Assembly: GCA_965116175.1 (NCBI GenBank)
Contig: OZ220490.1
Coordinates: forward strand, 129,643-193,642
DNA: 64,000 bases
Source: Bdellovibrionales bacterium
GTDB lineage: Bacteria; Bdellovibrionota; Bdellovibrionia; Bdellovibrionales; UBA1609
Direction of reading: 5' to 3'
Part shown: positions 4,545 to 26,608 of the stretch, piece by piece
Numbering within the stretch: position 1 is the first letter of the stretch
Layout of the letters: each line of letters begins with the position of its first letter
Notes under the pieces: generated by a model
The model's database searches: none
Told to the model about the DNA's origin: nothing
The model's input: the letters and a program-made list of their open reading frames with translations, nothing else
Made by a program: the position numbers and the translations under genes

Positions 4545-4546
4545 AT

Positions 4547-5724: not shown

Positions 5725-5903
5725 TGGTTAGCCTCCTTTTGCTGAGCCATACATACAATCCCTTGATAAAGCTGATGCTCTATCCATAGAACACTTGTCC
5801 AAATCCAAAAAAGCAGAAGTATGAGTTTAATAAGCATTATTAAAGTCAGGGAGAAGATAAGTGCCTCAACAAAGCTTTGGCCTGTTTGCTCACTTATTGT
5901 CAT
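5562..5903 (-). CDS. TadE-like pilus assembly protein
   Basis: N-terminus MTISEQTGQSFVEALIFSLTLIMLIKLILLLF matches the TadE-like GQxxVExAL plus hydrophobic-helix signature. Overlaps the flp stop by 4 nt. Confidence 0.6.
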   Translation of the reverse strand: MTISEQTGQSFVEALIFSLTLIMLIKLILLLFWIWTSVLWIEHQLYQGIVCMAQQKEANQCKQNTLKQIQKLTPLGTIKSLNIKNFQNEWKGYVQWHFYKKDFFIRQTLNLPQ

Positions 5904-6355
5904 TTTCTCTTTTTTGTTTTTTTATCTGTGCTGGCAGAGCCTGACATAAAATCACTTAAATCACTTCTTTTGTATTCTTCTTTTTTCATAGTATGGGTTT
6001 TTGCTTTTTGATTTTTGCCTTGTAAAGCATAAATAGCATTTGCAAAACGGGATTTAACAGTTTGATTAAGAGTTCTGATTATACCAATAGTGGCCACCCC
6101 CATTAGGGCAATGAGTATTAAATATTCAATCAATCCCTGACCTTTTTTATTAAGCAGAAGGGGTTTTATCTTTAATACCCTTGGGGTTTGTTTTATATGA
6201 CTCTTTTTTGTAAAGAGGCCATTGCGGCTTAAGGGAAACCCCATTTTGATTTTTTGAACATTATTCTTCTTTAAAAAACAGCTCCAAAACGATTGTTTTT
6301 TTTTGGCTGGCTGCTTGTTGTTTTTTAGATTCATAATAACCCCCTTTTTTATCAT
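5900..6355 (-). CDS. flp: Flp-family pilin with a long basic leader and a charged C-terminal extension
   Basis: KGQGLIEYLILIALMGVATIGII is the Flp G/xxxxEY motif. The probable true start is ATG at 6334, preceded by GGGGG. Confidence 0.7.
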   Translation of the reverse strand: MIKKGVIMNLKNNKQPAKKKQSFWSCFLKKNNVQKIKMGFPLSRNGLFTKKSHIKQTPRVLKIKPLLLNKKGQGLIEYLILIALMGVATIGIIRTLNQTVKSRFANAIYALQGKNQKAKTHTMKKEEYKRSDLSDFMSGSASTDKKTKKRK

Positions 6356-6376
6356 TTGTATTTATCCGGTTTGAAA
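6354..6376 (-). promoter_or_regulatory. Copy of the recurrent TTCAAAC..GAT..GTATA motif, oriented toward flp
   Basis: The minus strand reads TTTCAAACCGGATAAATACAAAT, about 20 nt upstream of the RBS and ATG at 6334. Confidence 0.35.
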
Positions 6377-6602
6377 ACACTTAACCGTGTGTTTACTTCT
6401 TTCTGATGAAGTTTCAGCTTTTAGGACTGGAGCCTCAAACAGGATAGCCATCTTTATAAAGGAGCAAAAAATTTTCTATAAATAAGGAGCTTTTTTTGAG
6501 GAGTTGAGTGATTTTTTTACCGGGTGCGCCGGTATCCGGCAGATTTTTCTATATTTTTTATATCACATCAATTTGGTTTGAACTTTGGAATCTTTCAAAA
6601 GT

Positions 6603-6744
6603 AAAGAATGTGCCGCTCTCTCCATGAGAGTAAGAGGGTCAAAAGTGAGTTTGGCTTTGAGCACAAAGCGGCTAAGAGGCGCTTTGAAACTTATGTCTGA
6701 ATTTTTGACCCCCTTACTCTCATGGAGGCAATGATATATTCTTT
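6603..6744. ncRNA. Candidate structured RNA / conserved long-hairpin element, copy 1
   Basis: A 25-bp stem (6620-6645 with 6703-6727, one mismatch) lies inside an outer AAAGAAT/ATTCTTT stem. The apical core AAAAGTGAGTTTGGCTTTGAGCACAAAGCGGCTAAGAGGCGCTTTG...ATGTCTGAATTTTTG is shared with 49321..49465. Confidence 0.4.
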
Positions 6745-6825
6745 CATTTTTAAAAACCCTCAAATTTCAAAAAAGATCGGTCTAGCAATATGTGATTACA
6801 AAAATCAAACGAGATTGATATAGAA

Positions 6826-8826: not shown

Positions 8827-8880
8827 AGAGGATGATTTCTAACAAAATAATCCGTTTAAAACAAGAAATAAAAAATTAAA

Positions 8881-11841: not shown

Positions 11842-12003
11842 TGGTTCATGACAACTGAAGCCTATTATAATAGGTGTTAAGTTACTGAAATGACTGGAAA
11901 GACAAGTATTGTCTCCATTAAAAAGTTTCTGGGGCTAAATTCAGGGAGATTGTTAAGTTGTTTCCAACGGATCTGACAGCTTAAAGAAGTATCATGAACT
12001 TTA
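11842..12003 (+). mobile_element. MITE-like internally deleted IS1595 derivative (about 160 bp)
   Basis: Starts GGTTCATGACAACTGAAG and ends CTTAAAGAAGTATCATGAACT, i.e. IS-type inverted ends. The interior aligns to the first 150 bp of the IS at 16247 (e.g. aagtatt..ggctaaatt..gttatttgcaggagatttaacagctt). Confidence 0.65.
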
Positions 12004-12046: not shown

Positions 12047-12970
12047 TTATGGACGCTCAACATTGGTGCTAATCCAACTGGGAGCTTTTTCTATTTCTTT
12101 AAATAATATCTGAGCTTTTTTTATTATTTGTTCTATTTTTTTCTGATGCGGTTCACATTGATCTAAACTCACTTTACAGTTATTTCCTATTTGTATTCTT
12201 TCATCTTCTAAAGGATAGGCTGCCTCTACAAAATTCAAGAAAGCCTGGCATTCCATTTGCTGCGCTTTATATACTAATTCTTTTTTGTCTTCCCAAGCAG
12301 AAAGAGCGGGTCTTTTTAAACAACGGATTGCCGCATCTTCTAGCTTTTGTAATATATCTATAGTATCAGCATGAAAAGCGCTATTTTCCATAATTTCTTG
12401 CAAAACTTTGCTATATACATCGAAATAAAGAGCAGGTAATTTAGCAAATACTCTATAACTAATCATACTTCTATATTCATGAAGGCTTAAAGTCTCTATA
12501 GGGCTGCCTTCAGGATAGGGAGATATGGCTTCAATTTGATCTGCGGCTTTTTCATAGTAAGCAATAGATTTATAGGTAATTTCCAAATTAGTGCTTTGAT
12601 TGATGTCAAAAGTTTGATTATTATCATAATATTGTCCTAATATTGCAGTAGCAACTGCATGTCCTTCTTCAGAAGCAATCCGCATGTGGTTTAACCCTTC
12701 ATTATATCTGCCTATACATATAGCAGTAATTCCTAATGCATATCTAAGCGCAGGTTTTAAGTTATTTTTTTGTAATGCCAGTACTGTGTTATAATTTTCT
12801 AAGGTATGTGTATCTGAACACTGAATTGTATTTACTATTCCATAGCTGTTTAAAGAAAGAAGAAAGCTTAAAATTAAAATTCCGACTGTTGCTATTTTCT
12901 TTATTATCATCCCTCTTTCTGAATAGAAATGAGAACAGCTTTGTTTTCTTAAATCTTTTTCTTTTTCCAT
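12047..12970 (-). CDS. Secreted helical-repeat (Sel1-like?) protein; distant paralog of the 41.7-45.7 kb trio
   Basis: Likely start M21 at 12910 (MIIKKIATVGILILSFLLSLNSYG). Shares architecture and a Cys-containing C-terminal region with the three tandem paralogs. Confidence 0.6.
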   Translation of the reverse strand: MEKEKDLRKQSCSHFYSERGMIIKKIATVGILILSFLLSLNSYGIVNTIQCSDTHTLENYNTVLALQKNNLKPALRYALGITAICIGRYNEGLNHMRIASEEGHAVATAILGQYYDNNQTFDINQSTNLEITYKSIAYYEKAADQIEAISPYPEGSPIETLSLHEYRSMISYRVFAKLPALYFDVYSKVLQEIMENSAFHADTIDILQKLEDAAIRCLKRPALSAWEDKKELVYKAQQMECQAFLNFVEAAYPLEDERIQIGNNCKVSLDQCEPHQKKIEQIIKKAQILFKEIEKAPSWISTNVERP

Positions 12971-12994
12971 TTTTATTCTCCCCCTTATTTTTAA

Positions 12995-13027
12995 TTCATG
13001 GTGACTTAAGAGATTTATTTCTAATAA
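12995..13027 (+). repeat. Solo IS1595-like terminal sequence
   Basis: ttcatggtgacttaagagatttatttctaataa is near-identical to 2623..2656. Confidence 0.35.
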
Positions 13028-13182
13028 TTTTTAACAACAATATACACAAGTCACTATTTCTACTGCATCCACTGAAGATACTACTGTTTTTAGCTCTTTC
13101 CAAAGCTTTTTTTTGTGAACAAGGAGATACTCTAGGCCATTTAAGTGGGAATAAGTTTCAGCTATTTTCATAAGCTCATCCT

Positions 13183-14151
13183 TTAATAAAAATCTAATTC
13201 AGCCTCTTTAAATAAACTTGTTTGGTCAAGCTGATTATCATTTTTACGACTTACACTTTCGGCCCATTTTTTTGGATCTTTTGGATCATAAACAGGAGTG
13301 TTCATTGGGCGAGTTTTTAAAGCTCCTTTTTCAAGTTGTTCAATTCTATCACAGGTAATTTTGATATATTTTTTATTTATTTCAGTGCCTGCTCCTTTTC
13401 TTCCATGTCTGATAGCAGAGATAATGCTAGTGCCTGAGCCTAAGAAGGGATCCAAAACCCAATCCTTTTTATTTTTCATGGAAAGAACAAGACGATCTAT
13501 AAGCTCAACAGGAAATTGACAAGGATGATTTGTTTTTTCTACATGATTGTTTTTTACATTAGGTATTGCCCATAAGTCCCCTGGATTTTTTCCTAAAGGA
13601 TTGCAGGAGTATTGACCAGCCTTTGGGCCTTTAAAATATTTTTTCCCTGGGTATTTTTGAGGAACTCTAACAGGATCTAAATTAAATATATAATCATCCG
13701 ATTTTGTGAACCAAACAATAGTTTCATATTGTCCTGAAAATCTTTTTGTGCAATGAAGACCATGTTCAAAGTGCCATATAATTCTATTTCTCATTTTTAA
13801 ATTAAGAGAAGTGAATACAGGAGTTAAAGCTGTATCCAGTGGTATAATAGAGCTATTATTTACATAATTTTCTACCTGCCAGCATAAACTCCCTTTTTTA
13901 GATAAAACACGAACACACTCTTTAATAACTTTAGTTTGTTGTTTAATATAAGTATCTAATTTGAGTTTATTCTCATATTCTTTTCCGATGTTATAAGGAG
14001 GTGAAGTCACTATAAGTTGTATGGACTCATTAGGTATCTGCTTAAGAAGGTTTAAACAATCCCCAGGATAAACTACTACCTTGAAGTTTTTACGAAATGT
14101 AGAATGAATATTCAGACTTTTAAATTTCTTTTGTATGTTAGGGGTTAACAC
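13183..14151 (-). CDS. Beta-class N4/N6 DNA methyltransferase (SPPY type), apparently orphan
   Basis: Motif IV IVTSPPYNIG lies N-terminal to motif I LDPFLGSGTS. No nuclease partner is adjacent. Confidence 0.85.
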   Translation of the reverse strand: MLTPNIQKKFKSLNIHSTFRKNFKVVVYPGDCLNLLKQIPNESIQLIVTSPPYNIGKEYENKLKLDTYIKQQTKVIKECVRVLSKKGSLCWQVENYVNNSSIIPLDTALTPVFTSLNLKMRNRIIWHFEHGLHCTKRFSGQYETIVWFTKSDDYIFNLDPVRVPQKYPGKKYFKGPKAGQYSCNPLGKNPGDLWAIPNVKNNHVEKTNHPCQFPVELIDRLVLSMKNKKDWVLDPFLGSGTSIISAIRHGRKGAGTEINKKYIKITCDRIEQLEKGALKTRPMNTPVYDPKDPKKWAESVSRKNDNQLDQTSLFKEAELDFY

Positions 14152-14400
14152 TCTAAATACCTGCCATATTTCTGAAGATGTTTGTTTCCATTTATGTTTA
14201 TCTTATTTTGTAATGCTTAAACAAGTAAAAAAATCTTATGAAATATTTGTATATCCTTATAAAAATAGCCTTCAATAGTGTATAAGCAAAAAACATTCCA
14301 GAATCTAAAAAATCCACATTTTTCAGAAAAAATGTATCAAAATCTTCCTTAATAAACATAGCTCAAAGCATTAAAAAATTTTCCTTCAAAGTTGTTAAAT

Positions 14401-14621
14401 TTCTCACCAACCAAAGAAGCCCCTGACCAAGTTAAAAACTCATGTAGATTTTTATGTAGCCCCATGTAGCCAAAGATTGAAATATTAGAAAATACTCAGG
14501 TATAAACGCAGTGAAATGGCAGTTGCTTGATTAACCAGGGGGTTTGAAATATCCCAACATTTCCTGAAATGTCCTGAAACGGATAAACACAGAATCAAAA
14601 AACACAGTAAAATCAAATGGT
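14401..14621 (+). repeat. att-arm repeat copy A plus degenerate tRNA-end core
   Basis: About 185 bp is homologous to 15889.. and 25993.., including 3 ATGTAG sites. Ends AAATCAAATGGT, keeping only 4 nt of the tRNA-Pro 3' end. Confidence 0.7.
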
Positions 14622-14721
14622 GTTTGCGATTGATTTAGAAAATATCAACTTAAATCTTCATTATATTTTTTAAGCTTTGTTTCAATTTGATCTATTTTTT
14701 CTTTGGAAAATTTATTTATCC

Positions 14722-15765
14722 TTATTTTTCATTTTTTTTCTTTAAATGTTGTTCCAGTTTTTTAGCTTCTTTATCAAAATCAGATTCAAATAGCCGGTCT
14801 TGAATGATACGATATTTTTCAAATTCACTTTCAGCAAAATCTTTGGCAATAGCATTGCTGATTGTTCCTGCATTGTCTAAGATTTCCCGTTCATCAAATT
14901 TTAGAAATTGATCTAATCGCTTTGCCCAGTCCTCCATAGTCATGGGGATTTTTCGTTTTGCTCTATCTTCTGCAAGATCAAGGTAAGCGCTTACAATTCT
15001 TCCCAGTGATTCTAACTCTTCCGGTGTTAAGTAGTTTTTTGCGACTAGTATATCTGTCTTTAATATTTTCCCTTTTGGACTGTTTTCCCAACTGGTAAGT
15101 CCCATATTTTTTTTACTACTATCTGCTCTTTCCTTTATAAGTTCTGCTGCTGTCTGGCCGTGAACAGCATAATGAAGTTTATTTTGTGCTTTTGCAAAAA
15201 AATCGCGAGTTGTTGGAGCATCTTTATTATAATCTACACTTGTCGCATAAATATCAGTGATTTTTTGATAGAAGCGTCTTTCACTCAATCGGATTTCCCG
15301 AACTTCGGCAAGTAAATGCTCAAAATAGTCTTCTCCAAGAAAAGAGCCGTTTTCCAGCCTTTTCTTGTCCAAGATATATCCTTTAATGGAAAACTCTCTT
15401 AAAACATGAGTTGCCCACTGGCGAAATTGTGTAGCTCGCTTTGAATTCACTCTATAACCAACAGAAATAATAGCATCTAAGTTATAAAATAAGGTGTTGT
15501 ATTTTTTGCCATCTGGGGCAGTATGTGCAAAATTTGCACATACTGAATCTTTATCTAATTCCTTTTCATTAAATATATTTTGTAAGTGCTTTGTGATAAC
15601 AGAACGATCTACAGAAAACAGCTCAGCTATGAGTTTTTGTGTGAGCCAGATAGTGTTATCTTCATAGCGTACCTCGATCTGATTTTTACCTTCCTGAATG
15701 GTGAAAATTAAAAACTCTGCTGTGCTGTTTCTAATAATCAACTTTTTAGAATTTTTCTTTTTCAT
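14722..15765 (-). CDS. rhuM: RhuM-family protein
   Basis: 347 aa. IRNSTAEFLIFT...IWLTQKLIAELFSVDRSVITKHL...ISVGYRVNSKRATQFRQWAT is typical of the RhuM virulence family. Confidence 0.8.
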   Translation of the reverse strand: MKKKNSKKLIIRNSTAEFLIFTIQEGKNQIEVRYEDNTIWLTQKLIAELFSVDRSVITKHLQNIFNEKELDKDSVCANFAHTAPDGKKYNTLFYNLDAIISVGYRVNSKRATQFRQWATHVLREFSIKGYILDKKRLENGSFLGEDYFEHLLAEVREIRLSERRFYQKITDIYATSVDYNKDAPTTRDFFAKAQNKLHYAVHGQTAAELIKERADSSKKNMGLTSWENSPKGKILKTDILVAKNYLTPEELESLGRIVSAYLDLAEDRAKRKIPMTMEDWAKRLDQFLKFDEREILDNAGTISNAIAKDFAESEFEKYRIIQDRLFESDFDKEAKKLEQHLKKKNEK

Positions 15766-15888
15766 TCCATAACTTTAGTCTGATTTAATAAGGACTTAAT
15801 TATTTAGATATTTAAAGCTAATTTAAACTTGATTTCAATTAAAAAGCGTTAATTTTTTGTTATAGAAACTTCTAATTTTTCAATAATC

Positions 15889-16158
15889 TTTCATCCACCA
15901 GAGAAGCCTCTGACCAAGCTAAAAATTCATGTAGATTTTTATGTAGCCCCATGTAGCTAAAGATTGAAATATTAGAAAATACTCAGATATAAACACAGTG
16001 AAATGCAAATTGCCTGATTAGCCAGGGGGTTTGAAATATCCCGACATTTCCTGAAATGTCCTGAAACGGATAAACACAGAATAGACCGGACCCTTTTGGG
16101 ATAGAAAAAGTGTAAAGTATGTCTCCAGAATAGACCATAGACCGAAATCAATGGTCGG
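15889..16158 (+). repeat. att-arm repeat copy B plus degenerate tRNA-end core
   Basis: Homologous to copies A and C. Ends GAAATCAATGGTCGG, keeping 7 nt of the tRNA-Pro 3' end. Confidence 0.7.
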
Positions 16159-16244
16159 GGAGATTATTTCTCCTTTAAACCATTGAAAACACAAAACTTT
16201 TAAATCCCATGTAGCTCTATGTAGCCACTTACCTTTTATTTTTA

Positions 16245-16997
16245 ATGGTTCATGATACTTTAAGTTGCCTTAAAAATTGGTTAACCTATTGTATTTACAT
16301 GAAAAATAAGTATTTTATTCGTTCAAGGATTTCGGAGGCTAAATTTAGAGAAATTATCAAGTTATTTGCAGGAGATTTAACAGCTTGTCAGATAGCTTTA
16401 TTTTCTGGTGTCAGCAGAATATGTGTGAATAGAATTTTAAAACAAGTGAGAATAAGGATCACTGAATTTTGTGAACAGGAAAGTATTTTTGAAGAGGGAG
16501 AAGTGGAAATGGATGAGAGTTATTTTGGAGCTCGTCGTATTCGTGGAAGAAGAGGAAGAGGGTCTTATGGAAAAACCATTGTATTTGGACTCAAGCAAAG
16601 AAAAGGTAAAGTTTATACTCAAGTTATTAGGAATTGCTCTAAAAAAGTCATTATTCCCCTTATAAATCAAAGAATATCTAAGTCTGCTATTGTTTATACA
16701 GATGGATTTAAGACTTATGATGGTTTAGTAGATTTAGGTTATAAAAAGCATTATAGAGTTCATCATGGAAACAATGAATTTGCTAAAAAGGAAAAAAAGA
16801 AGATTAGAAATCATATCAACGGAATTGAAAATTTCTGGGGTTTAGCTAAAGTTAGATTATCAAAGTTTAGAGGAATGGATAAAAAAACTTTTTACTTGCA
16901 TCTTAAAGAATGTGAGTTTAGATTTAATCACAGAAAAGAAAACTTATATAAATTGATATTAAAATTAGTAAAAAATAATCCTCTTAAAGTATCATGA
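16245..16997 (+). CDS. IS1595-family DDE transposase
   Basis: VEMDESYFG...GKTIVFGL...VYTDGFKTYDGL...HINGIENFW is an ISXO2/IS1595-type DDE domain. Probable start is M19 at 16299. Confidence 0.9.
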   Translation: MVHDTLSCLKNWLTYCIYMKNKYFIRSRISEAKFREIIKLFAGDLTACQIALFSGVSRICVNRILKQVRIRITEFCEQESIFEEGEVEMDESYFGARRIRGRRGRGSYGKTIVFGLKQRKGKVYTQVIRNCSKKVIIPLINQRISKSAIVYTDGFKTYDGLVDLGYKKHYRVHHGNNEFAKKEKKKIRNHINGIENFWGLAKVRLSKFRGMDKKTFYLHLKECEFRFNHRKENLYKLILKLVKNNPLKVS

Positions 16998-17000
16998 ACC
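16247..17000 (+). mobile_element. IS1595-family insertion sequence, intact
   Basis: Perfect 18-bp terminal inverted repeats (GGTTCATGATACTTTAAG / CTTAAAGTATCATGAACC). Flanked by an 8-bp direct duplication TTTTTAAT (16239-16246 and 17001-17008). Confidence 0.9.
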
Positions 17001-18174
17001 TTTTTAATAAAGGGAATAACCACATTGTTGGAATGAGCCTGAAAATGCAAACCATAACTAAGTTTGTTCGTGCTTCCTTTTACTCCAACACCTGCCAAGC
17101 GATTATAAACATCTGTCGTGGCTATTTTCCTATGTCCCACAATGGACATTACAACATTTAAAGCCACACCTTTGGACAACATATTGGTAATAAAGGTCCT
17201 CTCAAATCATGGAATTTCACTTCAGGGATATAACTCCCTTTACAAAAATCCCTTAAAATTTCTGATTGCATTCCCGCTCTCCACTCTCTTAATCTTGGAA
17301 GAAGTAAATTGTCCCATACAAAAAACACCTTCTCTTGTTTAGCCTCATTCTTCCACTTCCAAAGTGTTTCCCTATGATCGCCTTTAGCCATAAGCCACTT
17401 TAAAAGAGATTTTAATTCATCGGCTATAGGAATAACACGGCTGAGACTTGTCTTTGTTTCGTGAAGTCCGTCTCTCGAGGTGAATTGTCTTTTGATATGG
17501 ATAATCCCTGCGGACATATCCACATCAGACACCCTAAGAGCGTATATCTCGCCGTTTCTCATCCCTGTAAATAAGGCTACAGCCCAATGAGAATAAAACC
17601 TGTGATCGCAGATTTTCCCTTCACTTAGAAGTTTATCTGCCTCCTCAGAAGTTAAAACCTTTTGTTTTGGAGCGGGTATTGTAACTTTAATACCCCTTGC
17701 CGGATTTCTGTTAATTGCGCCCTCTTCAACCGCCATCTCAAAAACTCTTCTCAAAGCTTTATGAAGATTCTTTTTTTGATAAGGGGTGGCAGAAAACATA
17801 TTCTCAAAAATGAGTTTATGTATATCAGCTCTTGTAAAAGTTTGTAACTCTTCCTCATTCCAAACTCTTGGAGTCCATTTGCCGAGAATTTTCTCGTAAT
17901 TAAGGACTGTAGAATATTTTAAGGAAAACTGCATTCTCCTTAAACATTCCTCCAGCCAGTTCTTCCATTTCCATATAGGCTGACCTTCTTTTTGAGCAAT
18001 AAGCTCTCGCTTTAACTCAAATTCAACCTTTTTGGCCGCTGGAATAGAAGAGATAAAGTTTCCTTGAAAATCCTTTCTTCTTCTCGTTTGTAATCTCTTA
18101 CCTCTGGCTTTAATACCGACATATACCTCATACAATTTTTTACCTTCTTTTGATTTATAAGTTGTTATTGACAT
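17001..18174 (-). pseudogene. int: Tyrosine recombinase/integrase, disrupted by a frameshift and by IS insertion in its last codons
   Basis: Likely start is ATG at 18174, after GGAGG. HDLR (HxxR) at about 17200 is followed by a 1-nt frame break. The C-terminal LSKGVALNVVMSIVGHRKIATTDVYNRL (catalytic Tyr) continues in ORF 16928..17182. Removing the IS restores ...PFIKNKR-stop. Confidence 0.85.
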
Positions 18175-18177
18175 AAT

Positions 18178-18363
18178 TATACCTCCTTTTTTTGGAGGCA
18201 ATTTGCCAAATCATTTAACTTAAACTTTAATCTACTGCCTAACTTGTAGGCTTTTACTTTTCTACGGCACACTAAAATACTGAGAGCGTTTTCACTCAAC
18301 CCCAGAAGACCAGAGGCTTCTTTGGTGGATAAAAGTTTGTTTATTCGGTTTTCAAAGAACAGT
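18178..18363 (-). CDS. xis: Excisionase/AlpA-like HTH protein (start codon unclear)
   Basis: My own translation gives ...NKLLSTKEASGLLGLSENALSILVCRRKVKAYKLGSRLKFKLNDL, an Xis-type HTH pattern. The stop lies 4 nt from the int start. No ATG/GTG/TTG is in frame; CTG at 18363 is possible. Confidence 0.5.
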
Positions 18364-18375
18364 TCTTTCTTTGAA

Positions 18376-18591
18376 CTATGCGCATCTGGAGGAGTGTTTT
18401 TCTCTGTTTCTGCTCCCTCCCAAAGAAAGAGTTTTTAAGTTAGACTCTTTCTCTTCTTTTTGCAACAGCTCTTTTATAAGCTGTTTTGGCTCTTCCTGTT
18501 TTTTACCGGAAAGATGTTTTTTCCCTGATGCCCTGTTCTTCAATGTTCCAGCAGAAAAACTGTCAAGCCCTAAACTTAATTGTTTTTCCAT
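18376..18591 (-). CDS. Small Lys/Glu-rich hypothetical protein
   Basis: 71-aa ORF preceded by AAAGGAG. It lies next to the xis reading frame and could be one gene with xis if a frameshift is present. Confidence 0.35.
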   Translation of the reverse strand: MEKQLSLGLDSFSAGTLKNRASGKKHLSGKKQEEPKQLIKELLQKEEKESNLKTLSLGGSRNREKHSSRCA

Positions 18592-19150
18592 TGGCTTATA
18601 CTCCTTTGGGGGCAGGGGGTTGATTGTTTAACATCCTCCCATAGAATGCTTTTTTAAAAAGGGTTATCCCTGTCCTTATATTTTTTTAGCCTCCGCTCAC
18701 TTGAAGTAAAGGGGCGAGCTCACCGGTGGCGATGGCCTGCGGCCACCCTTGACTTGCAAGTTCGCTCCGGCTGATAAGCCAACCAAAAAATATAAACCTA
18801 TCCTGACCAGTCTTGCTGAATGAACAGAAGACCTGAGCTTCCAAAACCTAAAAATGGAATTTTTATTTTTTTGTTTGATGAAATTAAAGTTTGCTTTTCG
18901 CTATCCTGATTTTGATAAACCAAAAAGTAGCAATAGAAATAGAGAGTGCGACACCTAGACAAAAAAAACCTGACCATTGATTTTTACAAGCTCAAGAACC
19001 AATCCTCAAAAATCCAAAAGAGCTATCAATCAAAATCAACACTCTTAAAAATCATTAAAAACTTCACAGCCTGTAAAAATCACCTTCTTCCTTTTCCTAA
19101 ATTTCCCTTTCCTCACCAGACCCAGACCTCCCTTAAATAAAATACATACA

Positions 19151-19217
19151 CAAACCGGACGCTGACCACCCTCCACGAAACCAAAGGATGAGGGGGGGGT
19201 GGTCAGCGTCTGGTTTG
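19151..19217 (+). other. 21-bp GC-rich stem with a 25-nt loop
   Basis: CAAACCGGACGCTGACCACCC ... GGGTGGTCAGCGTCTGGTTTG. The only non-Watson-Crick position is G:T on the plus strand (G-U in RNA) and C:A on the minus strand. Confidence 0.6.
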
Positions 19218-20036
19218 TGAAAACTCCTTTGTTTTTAAGGGTTTGAAAGGAATCAAAAAAAAGATACTTAACACCTCTTTAATGCCCTCTTTCCCCAGTA
19301 ATTACAAGCTTTTTTAAAGGCGCTCACACTTTAGCTTCAGCTGAAAATTTATACACCTAACAGTCAATTTTAGGGTCATTTATAAAAATCATAAAATATA
19401 CCTACTTTGCGATGGTGTTTGCGATTGATTTTGAGCTATGAGCTTGTCTTACATGCTTGCTCACACCCTCCTTTCATGTTCAGGAGCAAGCCCTTACCTG
19501 ATTCTGAGCTATGACTTACCGGCTATTCACAAGCGACCTACCGTAAAAATTTTTTAGCTAAGAGACAAAGAAATTCATATTAAGAAGACCAGTGAAGTAG
19601 GCTTACCTCACTCTCTGGTAGGGCTTTCATACATGACAGAGCCTGCTTTCCACCCTCATAGGTCTAAGATACTCGCTCACCAGGAGGGCTTATCTCTCCT
19701 GAAGACTGCTTCTTACCTACCAGTTCATCAGTCCCTTTCATCAAAAAAATATCGGCTTATAAAGAAAAAATTTCTGCTTAAAGAGCCTTATAAAACCGAT
19801 TTACTAACCCCATTTACAGGATTTTGGAGCAACAACTATGCTCTTACCCGCTCTTCAAATTCCTGTAAGCTTGCTTCACAGGGGGTCTTATCAACCAAAA
19901 TAAGGTGATAAAAAAAACAAAAGAGTCTCCTATATGAAGATTGAGAAATTGTTTTATATGTTGAAGTTTAAGAATCCTCCTCCCTCAAGCCCTCAACAAA
20001 GGATGACGGGCTGTTCGAGAGGGCAGATTTTTATAT

Positions 20037-21950
20037 TTAGTTTTCTAAGAAATAAGAAGAAATACCCTTGAATAATTTCTCATATTCTTTATCAATATTT
20101 TCATTTTTTAAGTTCTCAAAAATGAAATTTTTAGTTTTTTTTATTATATCTTCCTGTTCTTCTCCAAGAATATTGTTTGTTTGTAGCCATGATCTAATTT
20201 GTTTAAGTTTATCTACTTTTTTCTTTAAGAAGCTTTCATCAAATATGAGTGCTTTTTCCATAATAGATAAAACTTTATTTACATTCTTTACAATACAATC
20301 ATTTTTTATGAAATCTTCTCCAGTACTTGCTTCAATTGTTGGATCGATATTTTTATAGGTTTTCCAATCACCAAAGTTTCTTTCTTTTTGATATGATTCT
20401 TGAGATCTAATTGCGATCTGATCACTATCACTCAAAATCAAACATTTTCGTTTTGCCAATTCAATCATTGGGGTAATCGTTTTGATTGTAGGAACACCTT
20501 TAGCGTGACAAACTCCTATATCTTTACAAACAGCTTTTAATTCTTTTTTAGGAAGCTTTTGTATATATACTTGAAACAGATGTTTATCTCGCCAACCTTC
20601 AAAAATAATATTTTTTTCTTTTAAAATTTCAAACACAGAAAAGCCCAGTGCATTATAAAGCACTTCCTCATCTACTATATTTGAATCTATTGCTTGATTA
20701 ATTGTAGTAATTTCATCTTCTTTTTTTACTATATAATGTTGGCCAATATTCCCAGAGTTGATCATAAAAATTGAATGTGTACTATAAACAATATAGTTTT
20801 TATTTGAAATTTTGATAAGCTCATCCCGTAAATAGCGAGCTCCACTAGGATGTAAGCTTATATCTGCTTCATCTACTAATAACAATGTATTCATTAATTC
20901 ATTAGTTTTTACACGAACAGAAATTAATAAAAGAAAAGTAACAAACCTTTTAAACCCATCACTCCGACGTGCAAAATCATAAGTATTTTTTTCTTTTATT
21001 CCTGGAACAATTTGATTGGCATTTACCTTTAAAGAAAATTCTATATTTTTATAATCTTTCCATACTTTACGAAAGTGATTTGTAGTTTTTTTTGCAATGC
21101 TGTTGAGATAATTTTGAAATTGATTAGAAGTTCCTCTTCTCTTTTCTTGAAGAGAATGTTGAATATCTTCAACCCTAGCAAGAGTGAACATATTTTTTAA
21201 AGGAATATAGGAATCCGGGTTTCTTATAAAATCATCAATATTTATGATATCTGGTAAAAGGTTTTCTTCACTATAATTCCAAAATAAAACGTCTGGAATA
21301 TTTTCTTCTAGTATTTTTGAAACAGACTCATCGATCAGTTCTTCAAGGCTTTTAATATCAGCCTCTTCTAAATAATCATCCGGTATTTCATTAAAATTGC
21401 TTACTTGAAGGAATTTATGTTCAAGTAAATTATATTGTTGTCCTTCTACTTCTATATTAAAATCTTGAGGGCAGGTGTTTGTTGGTTTTTTCCACTTACC
21501 AAGGAGATTATATTCATCAGATAATGCATAATAACCAAAACTGCTTTTATTTTCTTCAAGAATATTAACTTCATATACCACTTCATTTTGTTTATAGCAC
21601 AAATCCTTTATACTTTGTTTTTTCCCTTTTTGAGATGCTATATCTGGATTTTTCTTATTTGCTATAACTTTTTCAGATACAAGTTCAAATAGTTTATTCA
21701 ACTCTTTAGTTTCAAGCTTAAAAATGAATTGAACATATGCTTCAGTAACAGTTTCTTCATCAGGTAGAGCTTCTCGTAAATCTCTATTCTTTTGTGGATT
21801 ATATTCCTTTTTCAACAATGTTAGAGCATTTAGAATATTTGACTTACCAGATTCATTTATACCTACAAGTACACGACAAGGGTGAGAGAAATCAAGAGCA
21901 ATTTCTTTAATAGAACGAAAGTTTTTTATTTCCACACGATCAAGTTTCAT
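20037..21950 (-). CDS. OLD-family ATPase plus Toprim nuclease
   Basis: MKLDRVEIKNFRSI...GINESGKSN (Walker A), LLLVDEADISLHP (Walker B), and a C-terminal Toprim-like IIFEGWRD ... LILSDSD. Confidence 0.85.
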   Translation of the reverse strand: MKLDRVEIKNFRSIKEIALDFSHPCRVLVGINESGKSNILNALTLLKKEYNPQKNRDLREALPDEETVTEAYVQFIFKLETKELNKLFELVSEKVIANKKNPDIASQKGKKQSIKDLCYKQNEVVYEVNILEENKSSFGYYALSDEYNLLGKWKKPTNTCPQDFNIEVEGQQYNLLEHKFLQVSNFNEIPDDYLEEADIKSLEELIDESVSKILEENIPDVLFWNYSEENLLPDIINIDDFIRNPDSYIPLKNMFTLARVEDIQHSLQEKRRGTSNQFQNYLNSIAKKTTNHFRKVWKDYKNIEFSLKVNANQIVPGIKEKNTYDFARRSDGFKRFVTFLLLISVRVKTNELMNTLLLVDEADISLHPSGARYLRDELIKISNKNYIVYSTHSIFMINSGNIGQHYIVKKEDEITTINQAIDSNIVDEEVLYNALGFSVFEILKEKNIIFEGWRDKHLFQVYIQKLPKKELKAVCKDIGVCHAKGVPTIKTITPMIELAKRKCLILSDSDQIAIRSQESYQKERNFGDWKTYKNIDPTIEASTGEDFIKNDCIVKNVNKVLSIMEKALIFDESFLKKKVDKLKQIRSWLQTNNILGEEQEDIIKKTKNFIFENLKNENIDKEYEKLFKGISSYFLEN

Positions 21951-22001
21951 ATTAAATTCACCCTCCTTTATAATTTAGATTATCTATAACAGAATAAATG
22001 G

Positions 22002-22958
22002 TTACTTATAAAAATTCACAAAAGCATTATTACCTAATTTGCTGAAAAGATCTTTTATATTTATATTTTTCAATATTTCAAAATCACAAGGTAATCCAAT
22101 CCTTCCAACATTTTGCATATGTTTATCTAAGTATTGTTTAGATTTTGGGTCATTGTCCACAAGGATGCTATTTCTTCCTTCCTCAATACAAACCCTTCCA
22201 GTCGTTCCTGATCCAGAGAAAAAGTCTAAAACTAGAGAGTTTGGATAAGAAAGTGACTTTACAAACCTTCTTATTATTTCCAAAGGTTTTTGTGTTGGAT
22301 GTCCTACTCTTTCTTTTGAGTTTGCATTTAATCTTGGAATCTCCCATACATTCGTAGGATTTTTCCCTTTTTCAATATTATGAGGATTTAACCTTTTATC
22401 TCTTAAGGCAATTTGTTTTGCTACTAAATCATATGGAACTCGAACAGAATCAAGGTCAAAATAATATTGTTTTGTCTTTGAGAGCCAAATAATTTCTTCA
22501 TATCTATTAGCGAAAAAACGATGTGCAGACATTCCGTTTTTATAATGCCAAACTATTAAATTAACAAAGCGCAGTTTAGTATTATGTCTTGTATAGTGTA
22601 AAATTTCTAAAAGATCCCCCTTCTTTAAATCTTGATATTGAAAACCTCCAAAAATCACACAGTTGCCTGAATCACTTAAAATCCTATAAATTTCATCCAA
22701 CCATTGTTTAGCCCAATCCAAATAATTTTCAAATTTATCCCATATATCTAATTCAAGATTATATGGAGGATCGACAAGTATTAACTGGATTGATGAGTCT
22801 GGCAATTTTTTTAAAAAATTAACAGCATCTTCAATATACAGGACATGCTTAGTTTTTTTTGGTAGTTTACTTGTAATAAAAGAACTGTGTTTCTTACCTT
22901 TTTTATTGATAGAATTCATTGCTTGATGTCCTGAATTATAATGTGATCTATTTGCCAT
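22002..22958 (-). CDS. Beta-class N6/N4 DNA methyltransferase (DPPY type)
   Basis: LILVDPPYN (motif IV) precedes DFFSGSGTTG (motif I). Its start overlaps the upstream helicase gene by 11 nt. Confidence 0.9.
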   Translation of the reverse strand: MANRSHYNSGHQAMNSINKKGKKHSSFITSKLPKKTKHVLYIEDAVNFLKKLPDSSIQLILVDPPYNLELDIWDKFENYLDWAKQWLDEIYRILSDSGNCVIFGGFQYQDLKKGDLLEILHYTRHNTKLRFVNLIVWHYKNGMSAHRFFANRYEEIIWLSKTKQYYFDLDSVRVPYDLVAKQIALRDKRLNPHNIEKGKNPTNVWEIPRLNANSKERVGHPTQKPLEIIRRFVKSLSYPNSLVLDFFSGSGTTGRVCIEEGRNSILVDNDPKSKQYLDKHMQNVGRIGLPCDFEILKNINIKDLFSKLGNNAFVNFYK

Positions 22959-25683
22959 TGATAAACTCCATTCTGTTTAAAAAGTATTTAGATGTGAGAA
23001 AATTCTTACCAAATAATTCTTTTAATATGGACAATTCTTTTCTTGGTAGTTCAATGCTCTTTTTTAAATAATATTTTTTAATTGCATCAAATCGCATTTT
23101 CAACAATGTATCTGGTTCTTTAGATTCAGAAATTAATAATTTTGGTGAAACTAAAAATAATTTTAACTCTATGTTGTTTCTACTATTTTCTAACACTCCT
23201 ATAGCTTCTAATATATTGAGAAGGAAAGGACATCGATGTTTCGCTCCCTCCTCAGTAGCAACATCAATACCATTTTGGTCACAGTATTTTGAAACTTCTT
23301 GAGAATTAAAAAAGCCATTATAAATATTTGATTTTGGTATAATCATTTTTCTCTCTACTCTATAAAGATAATTAAGCATAAGTCTAACTGCTTGCATATC
23401 TAAAAACATATCCCTAATTTTATCTTTTTTATTTTTGGATTTTTTTATAAAGTTCCGAGTAACTAAATTGAACTTTGCCACTGGAGTATTCATATCCCAT
23501 GAGGGAATATTTTGTTTTTTACTTCCAAATGATAAATTCACTTTTTCAATGACAGGTTTTAAAATTCTATAAAAATCATATCCTTTTGGATTTAGTTTTA
23601 ATTCAAATGTTTCATTTTCTTCTAATGTTCTGTCATCTACTATTAATCCAAGCTCCATTAAACCTTGTAATTTATATTTAGTTTGTCTTTGAAAAGTTCC
23701 AAGCCTTCCAGTATCAAATTTACCTCTCATTCTTACAAATTTTTGATTGAGATGACTTTTTTTAAACTGACCAGAGTGTATAGTCTTAATAATATAATAT
23801 AAATGTCCTAAATGAAGACCTTGTGGAAAATGATAACTTGCTTCGGTGAACTCACCAATTTCTCTAAGGAACTTTACCCACGATTTAAAAACTGAAAGAT
23901 AACGAGCAACTTTAAATTCTCCTTGTTTGTTTATATCTTCTTGTGTTGGTTTTCTGTGTAGAGATTCAGAAAGATCGTAATATGCTCCAATCAGATCCTC
24001 TTTTGTTATTTCTCTATCTTGTTTATCTTGTGTATCAAGAATTTGTTCTACCTCACTGTCAAAATACACATTACATTTTGGAGAGTATTTATATTCAATT
24101 TTTTCAATTCTACCGGTTTTTGGATTTTTAATCTCTTCCGAAGATTGTGAAATATACTTCCTTATTTTATTGGCCTTTTTATAATTACTGATAAAGTCTA
24201 AGACTATAACATTAGATTTACCACCACAGAGACGCAAACCTCTTCCAAGTTGTTGCATAAAAATTGTTTTAGATTCAGTAGGACGTAAAAACATCAAAAC
24301 TTGCACATTTGGAAAATCTACACCTTCATTGAAAATATCCACAGTAAAAGCAACTGCAACCTCATTATTTTTAAACTTGTCTGTCAACTCAGCCCTCTGA
24401 TCAGCTAAAGAGGTTATTGCAACAGAAGGAATTCCATGAAGATTAAAAAATCTTGACATTCTGTTAGCATGTTTTATTGAACAACAAAAACCTATTGCTT
24501 TATTTCCGTGTCCTTTTTTTAAGTATTCTTCAAGAATCTGCTTATTTCTTTTTTCTATGATTAGATGACGATCAAGGTCTTGAATATTATATTTTGTCCC
24601 TTTGTAGCGGATATTTGAATAATTGATATTATCTTTTAATCCATAGTAATTAAATGGAACTAAAAAACCATTTTCTATAGCTTCAATCAGTGAATATTCA
24701 AATACTTTATTATAGTCAAAAAGTTCAAAAATATCCTTACGATCCATTCTATCAGGTGTAGCTGTTAAACCTAACATGAAAAAAGTAGGATTAAAGTATT
24801 CTATTATTGATTTATATGTGGGGGCTTGGCCATGATGGACTTCATCAACAATAATATAAGCAAATTCATTTTTTTTAAATATCTTTAAATTGGAGACATT
24901 TTTTAATGAATCTTTAGAAGCAAAAAGTGTTTTAGAGTCCTTTAAATGCTCTCTAACATCTCCTGTAAGTAAACCCAATTTTTCTTTTGGATATACTTTT
25001 TCAAACGCTTTTTTTGACTGACTGAGAATATCCAACCTGTGGACAATAAATAAAACTCTCCCATCTGTTTTTAAAGTATCAAATGCAGACAAATAAGTTT
25101 TACCTGTTCCTGTAGGTAAAACAACGATTCCTTTTTTCCAACCCCTTTCTCTATACAAATGAAGAGCTTTTAATACTTCTTCTTGTAAATAATTAGGTTT
25201 AACAATAGTTTCAGAAATAAGTTCAGGGAAATTTTCTTGTATCAGCTTTCTAAGGTCTTCAAAAACTCGTTGTCTCCATGCTGATGATTGAAGTTGATTA
25301 TATGAAAAACGAAGTAATTTATAACCGGAATTTAAAATTTCATTTTGACGATAAAGATTATCATCAAACATTTCATTAGGAATAACCCCTTCTGCATGAT
25401 AAAGTTCTCCATTTACTTCAAGGGCTATCTTCTTACTATTTTTTAAAATTACAAAATCAATTCTTCTATTTTTACCTTCTGAATCAATAAAAGGGTATTG
25501 AGGAATAACATATTTAATATTTTTCTTTCCAAGTATGGGATATAAAAATTCTGAAACAAACAATTTTTCGCTATTTTGTGTTATTCTTTTTTTATAACTG
25601 CTTAAATATTCTGAAAGTTCAACTATTTCCTTTTTTTCAAAAAGATTTTTCCAAAGATTTCTTGATAATATTTGGTCTGACAT
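22948..25683 (-). CDS. DUF559/Vsr-like nuclease plus SF2 (ResIII-type) helicase with an unassigned 350-aa C-terminal region
   Basis: RIDFVIL..IALEVNGELYH..GYKLLRFSYNQL, then LPTGTGKT, IIVDEVHH, GLTATP and QQLGRGLR. Residues about 560-911 are unrecognised. Confidence 0.9.
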   Translation of the reverse strand: MSDQILSRNLWKNLFEKKEIVELSEYLSSYKKRITQNSEKLFVSEFLYPILGKKNIKYVIPQYPFIDSEGKNRRIDFVILKNSKKIALEVNGELYHAEGVIPNEMFDDNLYRQNEILNSGYKLLRFSYNQLQSSAWRQRVFEDLRKLIQENFPELISETIVKPNYLQEEVLKALHLYRERGWKKGIVVLPTGTGKTYLSAFDTLKTDGRVLFIVHRLDILSQSKKAFEKVYPKEKLGLLTGDVREHLKDSKTLFASKDSLKNVSNLKIFKKNEFAYIIVDEVHHGQAPTYKSIIEYFNPTFFMLGLTATPDRMDRKDIFELFDYNKVFEYSLIEAIENGFLVPFNYYGLKDNINYSNIRYKGTKYNIQDLDRHLIIEKRNKQILEEYLKKGHGNKAIGFCCSIKHANRMSRFFNLHGIPSVAITSLADQRAELTDKFKNNEVAVAFTVDIFNEGVDFPNVQVLMFLRPTESKTIFMQQLGRGLRLCGGKSNVIVLDFISNYKKANKIRKYISQSSEEIKNPKTGRIEKIEYKYSPKCNVYFDSEVEQILDTQDKQDREITKEDLIGAYYDLSESLHRKPTQEDINKQGEFKVARYLSVFKSWVKFLREIGEFTEASYHFPQGLHLGHLYYIIKTIHSGQFKKSHLNQKFVRMRGKFDTGRLGTFQRQTKYKLQGLMELGLIVDDRTLEENETFELKLNPKGYDFYRILKPVIEKVNLSFGSKKQNIPSWDMNTPVAKFNLVTRNFIKKSKNKKDKIRDMFLDMQAVRLMLNYLYRVERKMIIPKSNIYNGFFNSQEVSKYCDQNGIDVATEEGAKHRCPFLLNILEAIGVLENSRNNIELKLFLVSPKLLISESKEPDTLLKMRFDAIKKYYLKKSIELPRKELSILKELFGKNFLTSKYFLNRMEFINGK

Positions 25684-25688
25684 AATGT

Positions 25689-25907
25689 TTATTCCATTAA
25701 ATTATCAATAGTGACGTCCAAAGCAACAGCAATCTTCTTTACGGTTTCAATAGTTGGATTTGGAGTATCACCTGCTTCAATTTTTGTAATTGTATTAAAT
25801 GATACCTCTGCAAGTTTAGATAACTTATCTTGAGAAATACCTTTTTCATTCCTATACTTTCTTATATTTTGTGCTATTACTGACAAATGTTTTTTTGATC
25901 GGCTCAT
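25689..25907 (-). CDS. XRE-family HTH regulator (controller-protein candidate)
   Basis: 72 aa. IRKYRNEKGISQDKLSKLAEVSFNTITKIEAG is a canonical HTH_3 pattern. Stop lies 5 nt before the helicase start. Confidence 0.85.
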   Translation of the reverse strand: MSRSKKHLSVIAQNIRKYRNEKGISQDKLSKLAEVSFNTITKIEAGDTPNPTIETVKKIAVALDVTIDNLME

Positions 25908-25992
25908 AGTATAACTTTACTAATATAGGGTTATATATGACAGCTATCACATAATGAATACTATGATCAAGCTGTTTCAGTGCATCATTTTT

Positions 25993-26205
25993 TTTCATCC
26001 ACCAGAGAAGCCTCTGACCAAGCTAAAAATTCATGTAGATTTTTATGTAGCCCCATGTAGCCAAAGATTGAAATATTAGAAAATACTCAGGTATAAACAC
26101 AGTGAAATGGCAGTTGCCTGATTAACCAGGGGGTTTGAAATATCCCGACATTTCCTGAAATGTTAAAAAATAGAATCTGTAAAGTTTATGAAATCAAATG
26201 GTCGG
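25993..26205 (+). repeat. att-arm repeat copy C abutting the tRNA-Pro 3' end
   Basis: Homologous to copies A and B. ATGTAG at 26033, 26045 and 26055. Runs into GAAATCAAATGGTCGG, which is the tRNA 3' terminus. Confidence 0.7.
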
Positions 26206-26275
26206 ACCGACAGGATTTGAACCTGCGACTTCCACCGCCCCATGGTGGCGCGCTACCGGGCTGCGCTACGGTCCG
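26199..26275 (-). tRNA. tRNA-Pro (anticodon GGG)
   Basis: Hand-folded: acceptor CGGACCG/CGGTCCG, D arm GCGC-AGCCCGGTA-GCGC, anticodon arm CCACC-AUGGGGC-GGUGG, T arm GCAGG-TTCAAAT-CCTGT, discriminator A, encoded CCA. Confidence 0.95.
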
Positions 26276-26340: not shown

Positions 26341-26430
26341 TCAGTTTTTTTGTAATTTAAACTTTTTAAACAGAGCGCCCTCCACATAAAAGCAGATGCA
26401 AAACAAGAAAGCCAAAAACACACTCCACAT
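26341..26430 (-). CDS. 29-aa hydrophobic mini-ORF 3 (identical to mini-ORF 2)
   Basis: Its ATG overlaps the TGA of mini-ORF 2 (TGATG). The frame is intact. Confidence 0.3.
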   Translation of the reverse strand: MWSVFLAFLFCICFYVEGALFKKFKLQKN

Positions 26431-26519
26431 CAGTTTTTTTGTAATTTAAACTTTTTAAACAGAGCGCCCTCCACATAAAAGCAGATGCAAAACAAGAAAG
26501 CCAAAAACACACTCCACAT
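26430..26519 (-). CDS. 29-aa hydrophobic mini-ORF 2 (MWSVFLAFLFCICFYVEGALFKKFKLQKN)
   Basis: Its ATG overlaps the TGA of mini-ORF 1 (TGATG). The frame is intact. Confidence 0.3.
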   Translation of the reverse strand: MWSVFLAFLFCICFYVEGALFKKFKLQKN

Positions 26520-26608
26520 CAGTTTTTTTGTAATTTAAACTTTTTAAACAGAGCACCCCCCACATAAAAGCAGATGCAAAACAAGAAAACCAAAAACACA
26601 CTCCACAT
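26519..26608 (-). CDS. 29-aa hydrophobic mini-ORF 1 (MWSVFLVFLFCICFYVGGALFKKFKLQKN)
   Basis: Its ATG overlaps the ccsBA TGA by 1 nt (TGATG). The frame is intact. It is derived from the ccsBA C-terminal coding DNA. Confidence 0.3.
   Translation of the reverse strand: MWSVFLVFLFCICFYVGGALFKKFKLQKN

Follow-up and report, generated by a model that had tools for sequence, protein, structure and literature searches.

Results

Three arm copies and a decaying integrase beside tRNA-Pro(GGG)

We analyzed a stretch of 64,000 nucleotides (nt) from a Bdellovibrionales bacterium (contig OZ220490.1, positions 129,643 to 193,642; referred to here as the window), in which mobile-element and defense genes lie beside a gene for tRNA-Pro(GGG), the sole tRNA in the window. 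This region carries a tyrosine integrase gene (int), an excisionase-like gene (xis) and three copies of a repeat, here called the arm, the last of which abuts the 3' end of the tRNA; the element genes are all codirectional with the tRNA (Table 1). For comparison, we used eight related loci from Bdellovibrionales metagenome-assembled genomes (MAGs), L016, L018 and L020 to L025. Of the two attachment (att) arms discussed below, we refer to the one on the tRNA side of an element as P' and to the one beside int as P.

A repeat search of the window returned a single family with three direct copies of 198 nt, at 14398-14595 (A), 15885-16082 (B) and 25989-26186 (C). Their pairwise identities of 91% (A-B), 89% (B-C) and 87% (A-C) confirm the three direct segment copies that an initial annotation of this DNA had described. 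The left edge of the arm is sharp and common to the three copies, at TTCATCCACCAGAGAAGCC, while the aligned copies reach on the right to junctions at 14621, 16158 and 26205 and end in ...AAATCA(A)ATGG. Each copy contains three ATGTAG sites (14442/14454/14464 in A, 15929/15941/15951 in B and 26033/26045/26055 in C), and the close spacing noted earlier for these triplets was found again, as 12 plus 10 nt. Two extra ATGTAG sites, at 16209 and 16219, lie beside the 3' end of int. Across the whole window ATGTAG was not enriched, with 24 occurrences found and 18.9 expected; the evidence for its function thus lies in how the sites cluster and in their conservation between genomes rather than in their number.

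As sequenced, int is a pseudogene. A -1 frameshift at about 17197-17202 leaves its catalytic C-terminal part (HDLR-RTFIT...GHRKIATTDVY) in another frame, and a recorded protein of 338 amino acids (aa), P0005, is 100% identical to the truncated open reading frame (ORF), so that the frameshift is present in the deposited assembly. The frameshift-repaired product (Int) has 394 aa and is 73-84% identical to more than 30 full-length homologues (392-394 aa). It carries the tyrosine recombinase signature R..HxxR..H..Y, with R206, H322, R325, H348 and Y357 invariant between it and six homologues. In addition, an insertion sequence (IS) lies in the last four codons of int. Its terminal inverted repeats span 18 bp (GGTTCATGATACTTTAAG), and it has duplicated an 8-bp target (TTTTTAAT, at 16239-16246 and 17001-17008). 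Excising the IS in silico restores the end of int (...VVIPFIKNKR*), whose stop codon (16229-16231) then lies 5 nt from the nearer ATGTAG (16219-16224). An HTH_17 gene, xis, stands directly upstream of int in the window and in all related loci, where its product has 140-147 aa; the window copy is frameshifted near 18400, and tblastn with the Xis proteins of L020 to L022 splits there into two frames. The innermost element had been annotated as keeping int and xis. Both are indeed present, yet only as frameshifted pseudogenes and, in the case of int, with an IS inside the gene: the youngest element is itself decaying. The two frameshifts might be assembly errors.

Downstream of int lies the P arm, which comprises the ATGTAG sites at 16209 and 16219, the block GGGATTTAAAAGTTTTGTGTTTTCAA (16183-16208), which is conserved, and a short inverted repeat (GGAGAAATAATCTCC) extending into the adjoining core. 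In the relatives, the P arm likewise consists of two (C/A)TACAT sites followed by GGGATTTAAAAGTTTTGTGTTTTCAA. That this arm is kept beside int throughout L020 to L025 supports the earlier proposal that the ATGTAG pair marks a second att arm.

The same element family at other tRNA genes

A scan for the ATGTAG-triplet pattern with one genome per species gave six matches. Two of these were real, both of them in Bdellovibrionales MAGs (L016 and L018) and each with two arm copies. The same scan of viral contigs gave 12 matches, all of them chance with no similarity beyond the pattern, and a second viral scan gave none; of two metagenome pattern scans, one gave no match and the other a single chance match. 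The L016 arms lie directly 3' of tRNA-Gly(GCC) and tRNA-Trp(CCA). Those of L018 end in TGGTCGGGGAGAT, the 13-mer of window junction B, and in an 18-nt tRNA-Pro-like fragment; an ORF beside an arm in L018 was considered as an integrase and rejected, the ORF being a serpin. At tRNA-Trp(CCA), L016 also carries a 3-kb integrase-less island (4214-7275) with a P' arm of this family and no P arm; a direct repeat of 19 nt from the tRNA end (TGGCAGGGCAGACAGGACT) bounds it, and its cargo is an AAA_16/STAND-like ATPase.

Six loci bearing int homologues (L020 to L025) were compared together with 10-kb flanks. All six have one layout, which reads in the tRNA sense as the tRNA (where it lies within the locus), the arm, variable cargo, conserved non-coding DNA, xis, int, the P arm and the core. 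Their targets are tRNA-Ala(UGC) in L020 and L021, tRNA-Gly(GCC) in L022 and tRNA-His(GUG) in L025, and their cargo includes CBASS, SIR2, AbiE and restriction-modification (R-M) systems as well as OLD and AAA_15 ATPases. Int subclades track the tRNA type, the window Int grouping with P0007 (Pro), P0002 with P0003 (Ala) and P0014 with P0016 (Gly), and differences between Int proteins are concentrated in residues ~100-180. In L023 (253-11179), a conjugative element that carries TraG P-loop and TrwB/TraG-D-like genes is joined to an Int of this family.

The origin of the arm is clearest in L021, whose sole full arm stands between tRNA-Ala and the cargo. The junction at the distal end of this element repeats 46 nt, made up of the tRNA end and the first 34 nt of the arm, and continues into a rhuM pseudogene fragment. 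Since the full arm occurs on the tRNA side of the element only, the arm is element DNA and not chromosomal flank.

Five of the six int-bearing loci hold another arm, complete or as a remnant, on the distal side of int. L020 has a full second arm followed by a methyltransferase gene, and L022 has two arm remnants beyond int. In L023, a full arm is followed by R-M and CBASS genes and by a second xis-int pair that is cut by an IS200-type (Y1_Tnp) element. L024 comprises at least three units, one of which is an int C-terminal remnant, and L025 shows a decayed arm with an older tRNA-His fragment of ~20 nt. Accretion is thus usual for this Int family. The window follows the pattern of L020, L023 and L024 in having its arms, here three, in direct orientation and int and xis only in the tRNA-proximal unit. 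Moreover, the methyltransferase of its oldest unit has 91% identity with the cargo gene that comes first behind the L022 arm, and the DNA flanking arm A has a homologue in a remnant at L022 12729-12850. We thus conclude that the older units are truncated members of the same family.

Architecture of the P' arm

From the tRNA inward, arm C consists of a spacer of ~35 nt, a palindrome (ACATTTCCTGAAATGT, at 26148), a degenerate hairpin, the three ATGTAG sites and an inner end that resembles xis. The palindrome ACATTTCAGGAAATGT is invariant among arms. A hairpin of the form CGGGG...CCCCG followed by a T-run, called terminator-like in L021, shows variants that are G-U-compatible on the tRNA-sense strand; all three window arms lack 8 nt of it, a deletion that is absent from the arms of other genomes. 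A second hairpin or palindrome in the arm is degenerate in the window copies. Arm B has an insertion of ~55-60 nt near its core end (16083-16140), which is not found in arms A and C and is bounded by an 11-nt direct repeat (minus strand, GGTCTATTCTG; plus strand, CAGAATAGACC).

The motif CTACAT, the reverse complement of ATGTAG, is nearly invariant in 15 aligned arms and is conserved in eight P arms. The flanks of the sites match between P and P' of the same element, being TTATACAT in L020, TTCTACA in L025 and GGCTACAT in the window. Such covariation between the two arms is the pattern expected of co-evolving arm-type integrase sites, and it supports the ATGTAG sites as candidate arm-type Int sites on both arms.

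At its inner end, the arm repeats, in inverted orientation and with 22-25 of 29 nt matching, the xis segment that encodes KLLSTKEASG. This segment is identical at 29 of 29 positions in six elements and sits within a xis stretch of ~75 nt that is conserved even at third codon positions.

We also considered the arm as a structured RNA or a tRNA-trailer small RNA (sRNA) and rejected this candidate. RNAalifold on the arms gave a weak consensus fold of -12.6 kcal/mol with a covariation term of -1.2, and Rfam, run on the whole window at gathering score, matched only the tRNA; within 14.0-20.2 kb, a cutoff of E<=1 added two sub-threshold matches, which we take as chance. A local terminator-like hairpin is the only structure that these data support within the arm.

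Junction cores at the tRNA 3' end

The junctions that follow the three arms read AAATCAAATGGT (A), AAATCAATGGTCGG (B) and AAATCAAATGGTCGGACC... (C, which is the tRNA itself). These strings agree with the earlier description, although its interpretation as a shrinking piece of the tRNA does not hold: B is the end of a different Pro-type tRNA, and A is a motif found inside the elements.

At junction B, the match to the resident tRNA-Pro(GGG) is confined to 16152-16158 (CCGACCA), the 7-nt segment that also forms the 3' end of the tRNA at 26199-26205 (TGGTCGG on the plus strand). Seven nucleotides alone are too short for significance, and we recognize this repeat as a core by its position directly after the conserved P arm. 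Longer direct repeats are found at the distal junctions of relatives, of 46 nt (exact) in L021, 16 nt in L022 and, in L020, 12 nt of tRNA end with the identity running on into the arm. Bacterial tRNA-Pro isoacceptors have the C1:G72 pair and the A73 discriminator in common and hence would end in CCGACCA. Judged by its sequence, core B appears to be 12-13 nt of acceptor 3' strand plus ACCA from a Pro-type tRNA other than tRNA-Pro(GGG). Since it differs from the latter beyond the last 7 nt, TGGTCGG is not a decayed tRNA-Pro(GGG) end. The 13-mer of core B recurs in L018, and ATCTCCCCGAC is found in L024.

Read in the tRNA sense, the P-side junctions end in ...ATCACCTCCACCA in L020, ...TGTCACCTCCA in L021, ...TCACCCGCTCCA in L022 and L024, ...GTCGGTCCGACCA (the end of the window tRNA-Pro(GGG)) in L023, ...ATCTCCCCGAC(CA) at window junction B and in L024, and ...TCACCCGCCCCA in L025. 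Each of these cores consists of a tRNA 3' acceptor strand and discriminator, in some cases with CCA, and is usually preceded by a short imperfect inverted complement, such as GGAGGTGAAAATGTCACCTCC in L021. Two junctions are hybrid, with the match to the resident tRNA confined to the terminal 7 nt. In the window, the attP-side sequence TCTCCCCGACCA stands against GTCGGTCCGACCA in the tRNA, with CCGACCA in common; in L025, TCACCCGCCCCA stands against CGATCGCCCCA, with CGCCCCA in common. The crossover region is therefore probably the 7 nt at the extreme 3' end of the tRNA. On the simplest reading, the incoming element's attP survives in the left part of such a distal junction and was adapted in the window to a different tRNA-Pro isoacceptor and in L025 to the tRNA-His of another host.

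Junction A, which reads TGGTGTTTGCGATTGATTT, shares only ACCA with the tRNA. Its motif of 20-23 nt (14617-14636) occurs identically inside the youngest element of the window (element 3; 19412-19434) and inside the L022 element (8822-8841), in both cases ~800 nt upstream of xis. One possibility is that junction A stems from a deletion between such an internal pseudo-core (...ACCAT) and the true distal core, by which the middle unit would have lost xis, int and the P arm. Alternatively, it may represent an att type of another kind.

Cargo and neighboring features

On the left, the island is preceded by smpB, a tetratricopeptide repeat (TPR) gene and gshA. The gshA stop codon, at 11835, is followed immediately by a deletion derivative of the IS1595-family element that sits in int; it resembles a miniature inverted-repeat transposable element (MITE), with the same termini as that IS and with neither a transposase nor a target duplication. 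The present left edge of the island coincides with this MITE, which may have erased the left boundary of the oldest unit by IS-mediated deletion.

The ORF without family match in the oldest unit may be the cognate endonuclease of the methyltransferase beside it. The sole gene of the middle unit, rhuM, is the PADLOC candidate defense gene PDC-S05. Element 3 carries four cargo genes and, between these and xis, an ORF-free region of which ~650 nt (18592-19260) are ~80% conserved in all related elements, about like coding DNA; in the comparison with L022, the conservation stretches to 20036. This region contains a hairpin (19149-19219) with 26-bp arms followed by a T-run. A hairpin ~450-560 nt upstream of xis is found in L020 to L024 as well, with 22-26 bp of perfect or near-perfect pairing, about -50 kcal/mol and a T-rich tail, and many compensatory changes preserve it in six elements; it could be a strong terminator, an insulator or an oriT-like inverted repeat. 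Just upstream of the ORF-free region, several relatives have a 238-aa gene of no family annotation, and L025 has instead a 373-aa gene with a weak Replic_Relax match; the window has neither. The idea that the ORF-free DNA at 18.6-20.0 kb is a decayed form of either gene was rejected, as tblastn gave no match.

Beyond the island, the DNA from the 5' side of tRNA-Pro to a ccsA-like gene contains four tandem units of 88-89 bp (26346-26694) with 78-100% identity to one another. The ccsA gene, whose homologues range from 547 to 637 aa, overlaps at its 3' end with the last of these units.

Table 1. Features of the island and its borders, in window coordinates
Feature	Position	Strand	Basis
MITE-like derivative of an IS1595-family element, 157 bp	11843..11999	.	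Sequence comparison
Cargo remnant, oldest unit	12047..14151	-	Pfam, PADLOC, sequence comparison
307-aa ORF without family match, oldest unit	12047-12970	-	
N6/N4 methyltransferase, oldest unit	13183-14151	-	Pfam, PADLOC
Arm A, P' arm of the oldest unit	14398..14616	-	Repeat search, alignment
Junction A, ATGGTGTTTGCGATTGATTTAGA (reverse complement ...AAATCAATCGCAAACACCAT)	14617..14639	-	Repeat search
rhuM, 347 aa, intact, sole gene of the middle unit	14722..15765	-	Pfam 7e-110; PADLOC 1e-155
Arm B, displaced P' arm of the middle unit	15885..16151	-	Repeat search, alignment
Junction core B (putative), TGGTCGGGGAGAT (reverse complement ATCTCCCCGACCA)	16152..16164	-	Position after conserved P arm
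Last codons and stop of int, then P arm	16165..16246	-	Conserved beside int in L020-L025
IS1595-family IS, 250-aa transposase, intact	16247..17000	+	Pfam DDE_Tnp_IS1595; NCBIfam IS1595
Tyrosine integrase gene, main part	17009..18174	-	Pfam PF00589, six-frame translation, alignment
xis, HTH_17 excisionase-like	18177..18591	-	tblastn, six-frame translation
ORF-free region upstream of xis, 1.4 kb	18592..20036	-	
Cargo, element 3	20037..25907	-	Pfam; PADLOC and NCBIfam
OLD-family ATPase-TOPRIM nuclease, element 3	20037-21950	-	
N6/N4 type II methyltransferase, element 3	22002-22958	-	
ResIII helicase-type restriction enzyme, element 3	22948-25683	-	
XRE/C-protein-like helix-turn-helix (HTH) protein, element 3	25689-25907	-	
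Arm C, P' arm of the youngest element (element 3)	25989..26198	-	Repeat search, alignment
Arm inner ends matching xis 18311-18341, inverted	25993-26016, 15882-15912, 14401-14425		
tRNA-Pro(GGG), integration target (attB-derived)	26199..26275	-	ARAGORN; Rfam tRNA 61 bits

Discussion

Proposed history of the island

Taken together, these observations make it likely that the region from ~12.0 to 26.2 kb is an island anchored at tRNA-Pro(GGG) and built by repeated site-specific integration of one Bdellovibrionales element family. Most likely, three related elements inserted one after another and formed a small anti-phage defense island. Successive insertion of related elements with one common att arm was already part of the initial annotation, and it is now supported by the comparison with L020 to L025.

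The following sequence of events would account for the locus. From the tRNA inward, each element consists of a P' arm of ~200 nt, cargo, conserved non-coding DNA, xis, int, a P arm of ~70 nt and the core. The 394-aa Int would bind the arm-type sites (CTACAT/ATGTAG; three lie in P' and two in P) and carry out strand exchange in the terminal 7 nt of the tRNA gene (NNN-N-CCA, which is CCGACCA here). This exchange would regenerate the tRNA and place the newcomer between it and the previous resident, whose P' arm with its short core would thereby be pushed outward. In this manner the units of arms A, B and C would have arrived independently and in that order. As defense cargo, the oldest unit would have kept a putative R-M pair, and the middle unit rhuM, while both subsequently lost int and xis by deletion. 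The newest unit, with its HTH gene, helicase-type restriction enzyme, methyltransferase and OLD nuclease, is itself undergoing inactivation.

Several points weigh against this history. Among the gshA and ccsA loci of the nearest relatives available, none showed the tRNA-Pro(GGG) site empty or with another occupant. The gshA orthologues of L026 and L027 (79% and 73% aa identity) and the ccsA orthologues of L028 and L029 (71% and 64%) have neither a tRNA-Pro nor an arm within 10 kb; synteny is thus not conserved at these loci, which makes the empty-site comparison uninformative. The search for a genome of the same species was negative: no exact match to the window proteins ccsA and rhuM is on record, and a ccsA-based search of genome contigs gave no confirmed relative. 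The data come from a single assembly, in which excision junctions cannot be observed. Furthermore, both a P arm and an int remnant are missing from the middle unit, whose history therefore needs an additional deletion, and junction A is unlike a tRNA-Pro core. The 8-nt deletion common to the three window arms would also fit local duplication or gene conversion, and an already composite array could have been acquired in one step.

This last scenario, in which the three-unit array (or two of its units) arrived at once after a tandem of a cis-mobilizable element (CIME) and an integrative mobilizable element (IME) had been excised from the outermost att sites of a donor, strikes us as unlikely, though it deserves some weight. 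Transfer of accreted elements as composites has been documented (PMC5704250). This Int family is accompanied by conjugation genes in L023 and by a Replic_Relax-like gene in L025, and with core B deriving from a different Pro-type tRNA, at least the P side of that junction would have formed with sequence from elsewhere. However, a hybrid core is equally expected from simple integration with a crossover in the common 7 nt, and composite and stepwise histories, which share their end state and mechanism, look the same in sequence. A much less probable explanation, and one already largely refuted, is that the repeat is a tRNA-linked chromosomal module, such as a 3'-trailer sRNA with its terminator or a repetitive extragenic palindromic (REP)-like repeat, duplicated locally by unequal recombination. 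It would account for the position of the segment directly 3' of tRNA genes in every genome, for the terminator-like hairpin with G-U-compatible variation on the tRNA-sense strand, for the derived indels common to the three window copies, and for the arms in int-less contexts in L016 and L018. It is contradicted by the single insertion of L021, where the arm sits inside the element and not on the chromosomal side, and by the CTACAT sites of the arm, which match and co-vary with those beside int. Nor does it fit the weak consensus fold and lack of an Rfam match described above, the unrelated gene content of the segments between the copies, or the differences among the junction cores.

Within the preferred history of successive integration, it is conceivable, though in our view less likely than not, that attP is modular and retargetable, with a constant scaffold (the P' arm of ~200 nt, the P arm of ~70 nt and the five sites) and an exchangeable tRNA-acceptor cassette of 11-13 nt, possibly together with a coupling between arm and xis. 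This would be in line with the range of targets (Ala, Gly, His and two Pro types) and with the inverted complement that often precedes the cassette, and identity in the last 7 nt (NNN-N-CCA) would then suffice for strand exchange. If so, elements could hop between isoacceptors and hosts, leaving hybrid cores like junction B behind. As for the coupling, the inverted xis copy in the arm could link excision control to the state of integration, with antisense pairing to read-through transcripts of the tRNA promoter as one conceivable route.

The island documents the growth of a defense island by accretion at tRNA genes in a poorly studied lineage of uncultured predatory bacteria with small genomes. 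It also defines a recognizable element family by its Int, Xis, P and P' arms, with cargo such as CBASS, SIR2, AbiE, R-M, OLD and RhuM. Island finders that rely on fragments of the tRNA gene (tDNA) would probably miss this family, given displaced fragments of 7-13 nt, whereas its conserved arm makes a better marker. The hybrid cores, finally, provide a natural data set on the minimal core identity needed by a tRNA-targeting tyrosine integrase.

Comparison with known systems

How integrative and conjugative elements (ICEs), IMEs and CIMEs accrete by site-specific recombination has been modeled for elements of the ICESt1/ICESt3 type (Pavlovic et al. 2004; reviewed in PMC5704250). As in the CIME accretion model, the resident in the window decays to an int-less remnant with att flanks, and the newest, int-bearing unit lies beside the target gene. 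The window differs in its host, uncultured Bdellovibrionales MAGs, and in its target, the extreme 3' end of a tRNA; its remnants keep only the P'-side arm and a core of 4-13 nt and are not clearly complete CIMEs with both att sites.

In the tycheposons of Prochlorococcus, successive tRNA integrations push older, degenerating elements into an island (Hackl et al., 10.1101/2020.12.28.424599). There, too, one tyrosine recombinase family uses several tRNA genes, and degenerate integrases, partial tRNAs and defense or adaptive cargo are found, a likeness at the level of published description. In contrast to their attachment sites of typically ~40 nt, the window fragments have 7-13 nt, and the window family is recognizable by its conserved P' arm of ~200 nt.

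Among 3919 islands, the Islander database lists 125 tandems of at least two islands and four of at least three (PMC4383910); classes of tRNA sublocation were reportedly set out by Williams in 2002. Islander tDNA islands resemble the window in that the tRNA is split and restored, with a displaced 3' fragment at the far end. However, Islander needs an integrase and a detectable tDNA fragment for each tandem member, whereas the window has one integrase, a pseudogene, and fragments of 4-13 nt, which are probably too short for an Islander-type search.

An attP of the lambda type combines arm-type and core-type sites, on which a heterobivalent Int acts together with Xis. The window shares with lambda attP a short, candidate arm-type motif repeated on both arms (two sites in P, three in P'), xis directly upstream of int and an identity of ~7 bp at the putative crossover. 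Its P' arm, to which Int would bind in a comparable way, differs from that of lambda in adding conserved palindromes, a terminator-like hairpin and the inverted xis copy. Tandem accretion, decay and IS damage as such are already well described, in CIMEs, tycheposons and Islander tandems. What is specific here is the Bdellovibrionales lineage, the very short displaced tRNA fragments, the long P' arm found across at least four tRNA targets, and the two hybrid cores.

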